This document shows, piece after piece, positions 43,026 to 45,739 of a stretch of DNA of 64,000 bases. The stretch spans positions 64,673 to 128,672 of the forward strand of contig WJJZ01000002.1 of the NCBI GenBank assembly GCA_014729395.1, given 5' to 3'. The stretch's first letter is position 1; each line of letters opens with the position of its first letter. The notes beneath the pieces were generated by a model. It was not told where the DNA came from, searched no databases, and saw nothing but the letters and a program-made list of their open reading frames with translations. Made by a program: the position numbers and the translations under genes. The DNA comes from Candidatus Magasanikiibacteriota bacterium (GTDB lineage Bacteria > Patescibacteriota > Patescibacteriia > Magasanikbacterales > UBA922).

Positions 43026-43853
43026 TTGGCAGGTATGCTTTTTGAGGGTATAATAAAAGATAATCGAGAAAACTTTATTTTAAATATGCAAAAGATTTTT
43101 GATGTAAAAAAAGCAGATAATTATACAAGCAATTCTCAAAAAATAAGGATATTAACAGAAGATTGGGTTGATAGCCAGATTTTTTGCCCTTCTTGTGGTA
43201 CTAATATAGAAAATTATGAGAATAATCGACCAGTCGCTGATTTTTATTGTCCGAAATGTTCAGAGGAATATGAGTTGAAGAGTAAAAAAGACGGAATGGC
43301 GAAAAAAATAGTAGATGGGGCTTATAGTAAAATGATTGAGCGATTACAGAGCAGTAGTAATCCTAATTTCTTCTTTTTAAATTATAATCCAGTAAAATTT
43401 GAAGTGTATAATTTTTTGGTAATCCCAAAGCATTTTTTTGTTCCTAGTATTATAGAAAAACGAAAACCATTATCATCAACTGCAAGGAGAGCCGGTTGGG
43501 TTGGCTGTAATATATTACTCCAAAATATACCCCAAAGTGGAAAGATTTTTTATATAAAAAATGGTGAAGTAGAAAACAAAGATAAAATTCTAAAAAATTG
43601 GCAAAAAACTCTTTTTTTGAGAGATACAAAAAAAACTGAACTCAAGGGTTGGATTTTAGATGTTATGAATTGTATTGATAGTTTGGGAAAACAGGATTTT
43701 ACTTTGGAAGAAATGTATAACTTCGTTTCACTATTGAGTAAAAAACATCCAGATAATAGACATATAAAAGATAAAATTCGTCAGCAATTACAATTTTTAA
43801 GAGATAAGGGATATTTAGAATTTTTGGATAGAGGTAAATATAGGTTAAAATAA
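43026..43853 (+). CDS. DpnI-like PD-(D/E)XK nuclease with interleaved Cys4 and a C-terminal winged-helix domain (candidate methylation-dependent restriction endonuclease)
   Basis: PD..(D/E)xK-like arrangement in VADFYCPKCSEEYELKSKK, flanking CxxC pairs, and a C-terminal helix-turn-wing-like segment (IRQQLQFLRDKGYLEFLDRGKYRL). No adjacent methyltransferase. Confidence 0.45.
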   Translation: MAGMLFEGIIKDNRENFILNMQKIFDVKKADNYTSNSQKIRILTEDWVDSQIFCPSCGTNIENYENNRPVADFYCPKCSEEYELKSKKDGMAKKIVDGAYSKMIERLQSSSNPNFFFLNYNPVKFEVYNFLVIPKHFFVPSIIEKRKPLSSTARRAGWVGCNILLQNIPQSGKIFYIKNGEVENKDKILKNWQKTLFLRDTKKTELKGWILDVMNCIDSLGKQDFTLEEMYNFVSLLSKKHPDNRHIKDKIRQQLQFLRDKGYLEFLDRGKYRLK

Positions 43854-43857
43854 AATT

Positions 43858-44052
43858 ATGAAAATTAAAAAATGTACTAATTGTGGAAGTCGAGATTTTT
43901 ATATTCAAGAGACTATTTGCCATAAAGCAACTTTATTAGATAATGGTAGGCTGGAAACATATAAAGACGCTGGCAATGGGATAGAAAAGATAACTTGTGG
44001 AAAATGTGAGACAGAATATAACGAAAATGATTTTGAAAATATAAAATTTTAG
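43858..44052 (+). CDS. Small zinc-ribbon protein
   Basis: 64 aa with CTNC...CGKC. Confidence 0.3.
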   Translation: MKIKKCTNCGSRDFYIQETICHKATLLDNGRLETYKDAGNGIEKITCGKCETEYNENDFENIKF

Positions 44053-44056
44053 CCGT

Positions 44057-44266
44057 ATGCAAATAAATATCAATCCATTTTTCGCTAAAATAATATTAAG
44101 ACTAAATCCATTTAGTAAATTATTGGTAATGTGTAAAGGGTATAATGAAGATTATGATAATTTTACGGAATTAGTTTGGAGGGATGACAAAAACTTGGAT
44201 TTTTATGATAAAAAAAACTATCCTAAGTTTCAATTGTGGTTTATTAAAAAAATAAAATTATTATGA
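44057..44266 (+). CDS. Hypothetical protein
   Basis: 69 aa, same operon (4-nt gaps or overlaps). Confidence 0.25.
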   Translation: MQININPFFAKIILRLNPFSKLLVMCKGYNEDYDNFTELVWRDDKNLDFYDKKNYPKFQLWFIKKIKLL

Positions 44267-44946
44267 AATTAAAAAATGGAACCATAATGATTTTAGGGCC
44301 CGATAAAAATAATATTGCAAGAAAAGTTTTTGATTTAAAAATAATGCAAACTTTTCCTATAATTTCTATTGATAAAGATAATTCAATTTTAGTAACTGAA
44401 GATTCTAAAGATATCTCAATAAGTGGTTATGACCACCTTTCAATTCCACCAGATATTAACCTACATTTGACTAATAACAAAACATTAGACAACAAACATC
44501 TTAATTTTGTAACAAATTTTGTTGATTATGATAGTGGTTTATTGAAGAAAGATTTTCTACATATTTTTACATGGATGAGTAAACCAATATCTAATTATCG
44601 TGAACCTCATGGAACTTGGAACCAAGCACAAATAATATTTCCTCCTAAAGATAACTTATTTTCTGAAAATACTGCCATTTTTGTTGATTTTTTTGTTCAC
44701 AATTTCCCGCATGTAGATATAATTAATGATTACATTCTTGTTGATAAAATGATGCGTTTAGTTGGAGATAATAGCGGATATATCATTGGTCCCTATGAAT
44801 TTGAACAAGTTATACGTGGTTTACATAGATTCATACCAAAATTTTCATTTTCTTTAAGATTTGGATATTATGAAAATCTAATTGGCTCATCCAAAATATT
44901 TATACCATTAAAAATAAAAGAAAAAAATGCTACCACCTCAATATAA
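44263..44946 (+). CDS. Hypothetical protein (cargo, no recognisable domain)
   Basis: 227 aa, very AT-rich coding; overlaps its neighbours by 4 and 20 nt. Confidence 0.35.
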   Translation: MKLKNGTIMILGPDKNNIARKVFDLKIMQTFPIISIDKDNSILVTEDSKDISISGYDHLSIPPDINLHLTNNKTLDNKHLNFVTNFVDYDSGLLKKDFLHIFTWMSKPISNYREPHGTWNQAQIIFPPKDNLFSENTAIFVDFFVHNFPHVDIINDYILVDKMMRLVGDNSGYIIGPYEFEQVIRGLHRFIPKFSFSLRFGYYENLIGSSKIFIPLKIKEKNATTSI

Positions 44947-45739
44947 AAGTTATTATGAAATAGATTTTAAAACTCTAAAAAGAATTGAAATTTTTTTGAA
45001 CAGTAAATATATCTTTACTGTTGGGGTGTATAAAAAGGAAATGGGTTTTTATATTGATTTTCCTAAATTCAACAAATCTCAAACAAGTATCTCCAACTAC
45101 ACACTTCCAAAAGGAAAAAGACAAATCGACAAAATAGATCCCTCAAAAAGCGAGATAAAAGAAATTTGTCCTAAATTAAGTTTTCATGAATCAGGTTGGG
45201 TGCTTTTATCAAAAGGTGGTGTTTTTTTTGATAAAACTATTTCACGACAAAAAACCCACGACTCAATATTTGATAGCAATGGCGAACACATTTTTACAAT
45301 ATCATTACAAAACTTAAATAAATTACCTGATGAACCCCCGTCAACAAAAAATAAAATTGGGCATATTTCTTTGCCATTTTCACCAACACCAAAAGCTATA
45401 AAATTTGTAGGTAATTTATGGAAAAAAGAAGATCTTAAAAACGATTTTGAAGATTTTAACCTCTTAAAGAATGGAACTGAATTTCCTATAGTTTGGCCAA
45501 GAAAAGATGGCTCCAATCTTGGCGATATAGTTTTTATATTAAAAATATGCCATATTGAAAAAAATGAACCAATGTATCTAACGGTTCGTTGTATGCCTAT
45601 TCCGCTTTTAGACAAAACATATATAGACGGAACATTACTTACTCTTATTAGCGGGCTTATTTTTGACGAAGTTAACAATCTAGAAAAAGAAACTAACTTT
45701 ATAAGTTTTATGGCTAAAAATGACGATGTAAACAACTAA
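44927..45739 (+). CDS. Hypothetical protein (cargo, no recognisable domain)
   Basis: 270 aa. Confidence 0.35.
   Translation: MLPPQYKSYYEIDFKTLKRIEIFLNSKYIFTVGVYKKEMGFYIDFPKFNKSQTSISNYTLPKGKRQIDKIDPSKSEIKEICPKLSFHESGWVLLSKGGVFFDKTISRQKTHDSIFDSNGEHIFTISLQNLNKLPDEPPSTKNKIGHISLPFSPTPKAIKFVGNLWKKEDLKNDFEDFNLLKNGTEFPIVWPRKDGSNLGDIVFILKICHIEKNEPMYLTVRCMPIPLLDKTYIDGTLLTLISGLIFDEVNNLEKETNFISFMAKNDDVNN

Follow-up and report, generated by a model that had tools for sequence, protein, structure and literature searches.

The five tightly packed genes at 43026-45739 of the 64,000-nucleotide (nt) stretch of Candidatus Magasanikbacteria DNA analysed here (the window) are likely to be an assembly of separable parts: a known type IIM restriction gene of the DpnI family, a small conserved partner of that gene, an unrelated gene inserted between the two, and a pair of genes accreted behind them. 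These open reading frames are referred to as ORF1 to ORF5 in the order of their transcription, ORF1 being the restriction gene, ORF2 the insertion, ORF3 the small partner, and ORF4 and ORF5 the accreted pair. The region that holds them is probably the cargo of a roughly 7-kb integrative element beside a tRNA-Asn gene, and this cargo is composite, not one machine. A reading made earlier from the sequence alone had described the genes as a five-gene, methylation-dependent defence module on a mobile element. The DpnI-type enzyme without a neighbouring methyltransferase and its mobile setting have stood up to the analysis, whereas the five-gene module has not. The novelty is modest, the arrangement being a variant of the dpnC-dpnD cassette.

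DpnI-type restriction is textbook knowledge, and the domain matches and conserved residues of ORF1 identify it as a DpnI orthologue, a known self-sufficient type IIM enzyme. Residues 21-200 match the Pfam family DpnI (PF06044) with E=4e-80 (268.2 bits against a cut-off of 26.7, spanning positions 1-182 of the 183 in the profile), while residues 206-273 match the winged-helix family DpnI_C (PF17726) with E=3e-32 (111.1 bits, cut-off 23). The PADLOC profile mREase_II is matched at E=2e-114. The only PDB entries retrieved are those of R.DpnI (4esj and 4kyw), the first of them matched over its full length at E=1.7e-88, and the two proteins are 53.8% identical across 251 aligned residues. R.DpnI, itself a self-sufficient enzyme, has the catalytic residues E25, D53, E64 and K66 and four zinc cysteines (PMC3424567); ORF1 residues E45, D72, E83 and K85 align with the former and C54, C57, C75 and C78 with the latter. 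These results bear out the features that the sequence-only reading had picked out in this protein, namely a PD-(D/E)XK segment (D..EYELK) with two CxxC pairs, a C-terminal winged helix, and an overall kinship with methyl-directed type IIM enzymes of the DpnI type. That reading had also remarked on the absence of a neighbouring methyltransferase, and the remark extends to the whole 64-kb window, the scope of a tblastn search that found neither a Dam-type nor a beta-class methyltransferase.

By homology, ORF1 would cut DNA that carries N6-methyladenine on both strands of GATC and would need no methyltransferase to do so. It would in this way restrict phage or plasmid DNA that had been replicated in Dam-methylating hosts. 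Methyl-dependent cleavage by ORF1 in its own host is what this homology predicts.

The five plus-strand ORFs and the gaps and overlaps of 4-20 nt described earlier were recovered with the same coordinates and spacings, successive ORFs lying +4, +4, -4 and -20 nt apart. A promoter-like site at the head of the operon overlaps the TTG that the ORF finder used as the start of ORF1. Because this TTG at 43026 falls in the -35 hexamer of the site, and because Met1 of R.DpnI aligns with Met21 of the mechanical ORF, the true start of ORF1 is probably the ATG at 43086, giving a predicted protein of 255 amino acids (aa). Promoter-like sites as a class are not enriched in the region (23 observed, 27 expected), so that the position of the TTGGCA-17-TATAAT site is only suggestive. 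Nevertheless, one promoter-like site and one terminator-like hairpin bracket the ORFs, which makes a single transcript for all five genes plausible. At the far end of the operon, the long form of ORF5 (270 aa) is backed by full-length homologues, while the annotation of the metagenome-assembled genome, in which the window bears the locus tags GF349_01280 and GF349_01285, gives 247 aa.

ORF3 is the only gene of the operon that is strongly linked to DpnI, and it belongs to a newly delineated family of small partners. The family comprises 106 clusters, all annotated as hypothetical and none with a Pfam domain, whose members are typically 63 aa long and share a nearly invariant core, VMCKGYxEDxxNFTELVWxDDKxLxF. 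Its genomic context was read in two samples. The first, drawn from contigs taken at one genome per species, holds 79 distinct loci with DpnI homologues, of which the 78 with a preserved DpnI C-terminus were scored for the genes behind it; the closest relatives are mostly from Patescibacteria. Strong ORF3 homologues (tblastn, E<=5e-24) begin 2-6 nt past the DpnI stop codon in 16 of the 78, and weaker ORF3-like cores follow DpnI in five further loci. The second sample consists of 80 metagenome loci centred on ORF3. Here DpnI lies directly upstream in 51, mostly 5-13 nt away, and its place is taken in 23 by a protein of 244-252 aa that bears an FE(V/I)EHSTD motif and weakly matches a type II restriction enzyme, in 3 by a methyltransferase together with a DpnII/Tsp45I-like enzyme, and in 1 by an HNH-like fragment; the contig is too short for the upstream gene to be read in the remaining 2.

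In all of these cassette types ORF3 lies 2-13 nt from the upstream nuclease, to which it appears to be translationally coupled. The median ratio of nonsynonymous to synonymous substitution rates (dN/dS) is 0.11 for ORF3 (1661 pairs) and 0.12 for DpnI, and at loci that hold both genes the mean proportion of nonsynonymous differences (pN) is 0.160 and 0.164, respectively. Purifying selection equal to that on DpnI indicates that ORF3 is a genuine gene and that it coevolves with its upstream nuclease. Its product may act on or with the nuclease as a modulator, an inhibitor or an establishment factor.

The 244-252-aa protein (the 247-aa enzyme below) fills the DpnI position between the same flanks at its 23 loci, which include L108-L110, L114, L115, L118, L128, L129, L134, L139-L144, L169 and L172. 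It has a winged-helix-like N-terminus and a weak match to PADLOC REase_II (8e-5) but none in Pfam or the PDB, and is probably, to judge from these features, an undescribed restriction enzyme. In L172 an intact D12 (Dam-class) methyltransferase precedes it. Two rare fusions were also seen. P0128 (96 aa) joins ORF3 to the last ~30 residues of a MutH-like stump, and a 327-aa ORF in L155/L156/L164 joins the 247-aa enzyme to ORF3; both are probably deletions or frameshifts, which show how close the reading frames lie. P0128 had raised the idea that ORF3 is the missing N-terminal half of a MutH-like enzyme. This was rejected, as ORF3 resembles neither E. coli MutH nor the intact Patescibacterial MutH-family enzyme and is under purifying selection of its own.

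ORF2, in contrast to ORF3, is a rare companion of DpnI. Its matches to zinc-ribbon families in the Pfam scan are all below threshold, scans of IMG/VR found no relative, and homologues stand behind DpnI in only 2 of the 78 scorable loci (L061 and L092; 48-53% identity, 38-41 nt downstream). A nucleotide alignment of the window with L088 and L100-102, the closest DpnI-ORF3 loci, shows ~187 extra nt in the window exactly at ORF2. This marks ORF2 as an insertion into a pre-existing DpnI-ORF3 unit. A similar insertion is present in L167, where a QYDKIYSYF gene separates DpnI from ORF3.

The position behind DpnI is a variable slot. DpnD/PcfM-like genes (PF14207) fill it in 17 of the 78 loci, mostly in Bacteroidota, whose slot genes match the profile at 7e-14 and 2e-12. 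Other occupants are a 58-aa QYDKIYSYF family, a 66-68-aa MKKYIFYT family, 140-170-aa proteins with an ORF3-like core, and small CxxC proteins. Since neither ORF2 nor ORF3 matches the PF14207 profile at E<=0.1, ORF3 is a positional analogue of dpnD and not a member of its family. The pneumococcal DpnI locus itself consists of dpnC and dpnD, and dpnD is still called a protein of unknown function (PMC4471560); a literature search on the function of DpnD/PcfM and on DpnI in Patescibacteria returned nothing relevant. ORF3, plus the inserted ORF2 in the window, takes the slot that elsewhere holds DpnD/PcfM or other unrelated small proteins. Several Bacteroidota loci (L063, L070, L071, L079 and L082) carry DpnI, then DpnD, then a full-length beta-class DNA methyltransferase with a DPPY motif, an unexpected neighbour for a methyl-dependent enzyme.

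ORF4 and ORF5 are separable accessory genes that recur near other restriction-modification or defence genes. None of the other 158 loci with DpnI or ORF3 (78 genome and 80 metagenome loci) contains either gene and, conversely, DpnI, ORF2 and ORF3 are absent from all 13 distinct places in which ORF4 (6) or ORF5 (7) occurs elsewhere. ORF4 homologues form 25 clusters. They lie between hsdS and hsdR in L177 (separated from these by 20 and 2 nt), immediately behind an intact beta-class methyltransferase and a Pfam-MutH restriction enzyme in L178 and L179, next to ParB-methyltransferase genes and a helicase in L176, next to two D12 methyltransferases and a serine recombinase in L011, and next to Dcm and Vsr in L014. 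In L008/L009 (6001-6690), the ribosomal protein operon is interrupted at its head, between rpsJ (S10) and rplC (L3), an unusual site for an accessory gene, by an ORF4 homologue and two LiaF-like genes. ORF5 has 10 close clusters, and its homologues follow DUF3644 with a 4-nt overlap (L004-L006), end a type I operon that also holds YgjP and T5orf172 (L007), stand alone next to an island of helix-turn-helix, Eco57I, T5orf172-helicase and Mrr genes (L001), ride on serine-recombinase or ParB-methyltransferase elements (L002 and L003), or stand alone between RelBE toxin-antitoxin loci. Behind the ORF4 homologue of L178 and L179, 24 codons of the ORF5 N-terminus survive as a relic (62.5% identity). 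This indicates that the ORF4-ORF5 pair existed in a second lineage, while the persistence of intact copies of either gene apart from the other shows that the pair is loose and not obligate.

Neither protein could be assigned to a family. ORF4 and ORF5 gave no match in Pfam, NCBIfam, PADLOC or PHROG and no relatives in IMG/VR, PLSDB or INPHARED. The structure model of ORF4 is confident and found no structural neighbour; that of ORF5 is weak, with a predicted local distance difference test (pLDDT) score of 68, and found no structural match. An exhaustive search of 1.84 billion representatives with a hidden Markov model of ORF5 (E<=1e-3) gathered 44 distant relatives, most of about 270 aa and 20-25% identical, among which Pfam, PADLOC and NCBIfam recognised nothing beyond a SEC-C tail in three. 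Profiles of ORF4, of ORF5 and of the enlarged ORF5 family had no significant match among PDB sequences. Kinship between ORF4 and ORF5 was rejected, the profile-profile comparison giving it a probability of 0.2-0.4%. Both genes may have a role in defence.

The coordinates of the operon, its signals and the neighbouring genes of the element are collected in Table 1. The GC content is 27-30% across the element stretch and 36-40% in its flanks, and this drop, together with the tRNA-Asn gene, the serine recombinase and the rolling-circle replication initiator (Rep), bears out the mobile setting supposed in the earlier description. Housekeeping genes (RNase J and a class I tRNA synthetase) lie to the left of the element and a type IV pilin-like gene to its right. 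An Rfam scan of 39.5-47 kb found the tRNA alone, and no direct repeat of the tRNA-Asn 3' end was detected that could mark the right end of the element.

Table 1. Features of the five-gene operon and of the element that carries it (positions in the window)
Feature	Position	Strand	Remarks
tRNA-Asn(GTT)	39751..39825	+	left border of element
Large serine recombinase	39784..41451	-	Pfam Resolvase, Recombinase, Zn_ribbon_recom; 3' end overlaps tRNA
Rolling-circle replication initiator (Rep)	41753..42526	-	Pfam PF23343 2e-19; PHROG 3419 1e-33
Sigma-70-like promoter TTGGCA-17-TATAAT (candidate)	43026..43054	+	11/12 matches, joint best of region
ORF1, predicted DpnI-family type IIM restriction endonuclease	43086..43853 (mechanical ORF from 43026)	+	255 aa
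ORF2	43858..44052	+	64 aa; two CxxC pairs (zinc-ribbon-like); inserted between DpnI and ORF3
ORF3, member of 63-aa family	44057..44266	+	conserved small partner downstream of DpnI in Patescibacteria, dpnD position
ORF4	44263..44946	+	227 aa, mostly beta-strand; small family beside varied restriction-modification genes
ORF5	44927..45739	+	270 aa; small family in defence islands and at 3' end of varied operons
Terminator-like hairpin	45784..45822	+	18-pair stem, then T-rich tail; 45 nt past ORF5 stop

Several further observations concern the element and its borders. The serine recombinase ORF overlaps the 3' end of tRNA-Asn by ~40 nt. A 25-mer that resembles a terminator lies just behind the tRNA (39840-39864) and has a 76% identical counterpart at 46654-46678, close to where the GC content recovers; these repeats may be the ends of the element. 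On the minus strand at 45866-45895, a 20-nt piece (TTCGAATCCCGCTTTGGGTA) looks like the last part of a tRNA, with T-loop, 3' T-stem, 3' acceptor stem and discriminator. It is not from tRNA-Asn, it has the opposite orientation and no complete tRNA lies close to it; it may have been left as an attachment site by another integration, or may be where the cargo really ends on the right. Past the operon terminator, still in low-GC sequence, two small predicted membrane proteins (125 and 112 aa) are encoded at 45863-46588, one of them with a glycine-zipper-like GxxxG run; family scans gave no match for either. GATC is depleted on the element (39826-46850; 7 observed, about 18-19 expected) and near expectation in the flanking chromosome (108 against 129-135, and 60 against 48-58). 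Although the numbers are small, such depletion would suit an element passing between hosts whose restriction is directed at GATC. Finally, the 35 nt at 42533-42567, upstream of Rep, are 91% identical to a stretch upstream of DpnI in L088 (4307-4694; Magasanikbacteria), which retains the C-terminal remnant of a related serine recombinase. The match and the remnant together indicate that a related, decayed element carries DpnI-ORF3 in L088.

Other Patescibacterial loci suggest how such a cargo could have been assembled. In many of them, DpnI-ORF3, or the 247-aa enzyme with ORF3, lies between gene stumps on both sides; among these loci are L017, L023, L026, L029, L031, L134, L143 and many more. 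The upstream stump keeps ~75 N-terminal residues of a beta-class methyltransferase and the downstream stump ~107 C-terminal residues of a MutH-family enzyme, and they are 77% and 78.5% identical, respectively, to the intact genes of L178 (3089-4516). This match to an intact pair indicates that the cassette overwrote the core of a methyltransferase and MutH-like system. Searches of the window found neither the methyltransferase stump, nor the MutH stump, nor the 247-aa enzyme, and the absence of both stumps suggests that the cassette of the window moved onto a mobile element.

In L178 the intact system is followed by ORF4 and the ORF5 relic, and the gene order of the window, DpnI-(ORF2)-ORF3-ORF4-ORF5, would follow from the same replacement with the stumps lost later. 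The resulting block would next have been picked up by, or have travelled on, the element with the recombinase and Rep. ORF4 and ORF5 probably have a joint origin at the 3' end of a methyltransferase and MutH-like restriction operon, because one such locus still has ORF4 followed by an ORF5 stump, and they would be co-transcribed with DpnI in the window only through having been joined to it. We infer this history of replacement and capture from two loci.

The distribution of the genes, a check that the sequence-only reading had itself suggested, decides against the proposal that the five genes act as a single methylation-dependent defence system in which ORF2-5 serve the DpnI-like nuclease as sensors or effectors. 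Such a system would be in keeping with the tight spacing, with just one promoter-like and one terminator-like site and with four partners that lack known annotation, and it is true that the downstream genes are not structural or maintenance genes and that ORF1 has the PD-(D/E)XK and winged-helix domains expected of its leader. However, ORF4 and ORF5 occur in none of the 158 other DpnI/ORF3 loci, DpnI, ORF2 and ORF3 in none of the 13 ORF4/ORF5 contexts, and R.DpnI does its work alone (PMC3424567), which leaves the one-system proposal extremely improbable. Across genomes only DpnI and ORF3 recur together, ORF2 being linked to DpnI rarely (2/78), and PADLOC recognises ORF1 (mREase_II) but none of ORF2-5. 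An unlikely alternative is that ORF4 and ORF5, jointly or singly, are back-up effectors tethered to restriction-modification systems, which would be kept beside restriction enzymes, as PrrC is in EcoprrI, would fire when restriction is disabled and would here back up DpnI. The ORF4 homologues between hsdS and hsdR (L177) and right after a methyltransferase and MutH-family enzyme (L178), the ORF5 homologue that closes a type I operon with YgjP and T5orf172 (L007), and the two instances of ORF4-ORF5 adjacency (the window and the relic in L178/L179) all point that way. Yet neither family shows an ATPase, nuclease or toxin signature or a PADLOC or Pfam match, one ORF4 homologue has ribosomal protein genes on either side and no restriction genes in its vicinity (L008), ORF5 stands alone among toxin-antitoxin loci, and Patescibacterial genomes are so rich in restriction-modification genes that proximity may be due to chance. 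That ORF4 and ORF5 are instead the mobile element's own genes, with anti-restriction or establishment functions, for example, on entering a new host, is very unlikely: they do sit on an integrative element in the window, and homologues ride on other serine-recombinase or ParB-methyltransferase elements (L002, L003 and L011), but ORF4 homologues are also part of restriction operons in the chromosome, with ATP synthase or tRNA-modification genes as neighbours (L177 and L178), and searches of IMG/VR, PLSDB and INPHARED found no relative.

ORF3 invites two further readings, both improbable. In one, it is no functional partner of DpnI but part of the conserved right flank of a recombination hot spot at which restriction cassettes are exchanged, kept for reasons that have nothing to do with the nuclease. 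The same ORF3 does follow three different enzymes, and the many loci with a MutH-like C-terminal stump after ORF3 and a methyltransferase stump upstream present the pattern of exchange between fixed flanks. Against this, ORF3 stays with DpnI where both stumps are absent (the window, L088 and L017), keeps its 2-13-nt spacing to the nuclease in every cassette type, is under purifying selection at the rate of DpnI, and resembles neither the intact MutH-like enzyme nor the intact methyltransferase; a mere flank is therefore a rather unlikely identity for it. In the other, ORF3 proteins are dedicated establishment or modulator factors of GATC-directed cassettes, and ORF4 and ORF5 are new accessory effectors tethered to restriction-modification systems, a combination that is equally doubtful. 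ORF3 would, on such an account, let DpnI or the 247-aa enzyme overwrite a resident methyltransferase and MutH-like system without cell death; it might restrain the incoming nuclease until the old methylation had been diluted, or neutralise the displaced enzyme. The composite reading, a type IIM gene with its small partner, an insertion and accreted genes, is preferred over these, although several points weigh against it. One promoter-like and one terminator-like site around very tightly packed genes are what a functional operon would show. The context samples for ORF4 and ORF5 are small (6 and 7 distinct places), and the ORF5 relic beside ORF4 in L178/L179 shows that these two genes can travel together. 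ORF3 also follows enzymes other than DpnI, so that its role may not be DpnI-specific. Furthermore, no biochemical function can be assigned to ORF2-5, the ORF4 model matching nothing and the ORF5 model being of low confidence, and the methylation dependence of ORF1 is a prediction.

A comparison with known systems places the parts of the operon more closely. R.DpnI (dpnC of Streptococcus pneumoniae; type IIM, Gm6ATC-dependent; 4esj, 4kyw) has the same two-domain architecture as ORF1: both have an N-terminal PD-(D/E)XK domain with a Cys4 zinc site and a C-terminal winged helix. R.DpnI lacks a cognate methyltransferase, and for ORF1 none was found in the 64-kb window. They differ in setting, as ORF1 is found in a Patescibacterium on an element with a serine recombinase and rolling-circle Rep and not at the pneumococcal dpn locus, and the specificity of ORF1 is predicted from its sequence. 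In dpnC-dpnD, as in the window, a small gene lies right behind the nuclease, often overlapping or coupled. In contrast to dpnD, ORF2 and ORF3 lack PF14207, and ORF3 represents a distinct 63-aa family that is largely confined to Patescibacteria and also stands behind two non-DpnI restriction enzymes.

In the pneumococcus, DpnI and DpnII cassettes are exchanged at one chromosomal locus. The Patescibacterial loci are similar in that either DpnI-ORF3 or the 247-aa enzyme with ORF3 lies between the same flanks, and these alternative cassettes suggest an exchange of restriction cassettes at one Patescibacterial locus. The Patescibacterial flanks differ in being the stumps of a destroyed methyltransferase and MutH-like enzyme. 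PrrC, one of the genes embedded in type I restriction-modification operons, is located between hsdS and hsdR of EcoprrI, and type I operons hold one ORF4 homologue in the same position (L177) and an ORF5 homologue at their end (L007). This location is not shared by the genes of the window or by most other contexts. Unlike PrrC, ORF4 and ORF5 have no ABC-ATPase or anticodon-nuclease domain in Pfam or NCBIfam and no likeness in sequence or fold to known effectors, and their association with such operons is drawn from a handful of loci.

The finding mostly reduces to a known enzyme that PADLOC already detects. Its wider interest lies in the genes around that enzyme. The role of the gene behind DpnI has been unsettled since dpnD was described, and the slot it occupies is shown here to be variable and filled by unrelated small proteins. 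In Patescibacteria the slot is filled by a strongly constrained 63-aa family that also stands behind other restriction enzymes, which makes it a short, well-conserved candidate for testing the role of such a partner. ORF4 and ORF5, unannotated and recurring beside restriction genes, are reasonable guilt-by-association candidates and as yet nothing more. Finally, the many Patescibacterial genomes with DpnI-ORF3 set over the core of a methyltransferase and MutH-like system show how, in nature, a methyl-dependent enzyme replaces the methylating system that it antagonises.

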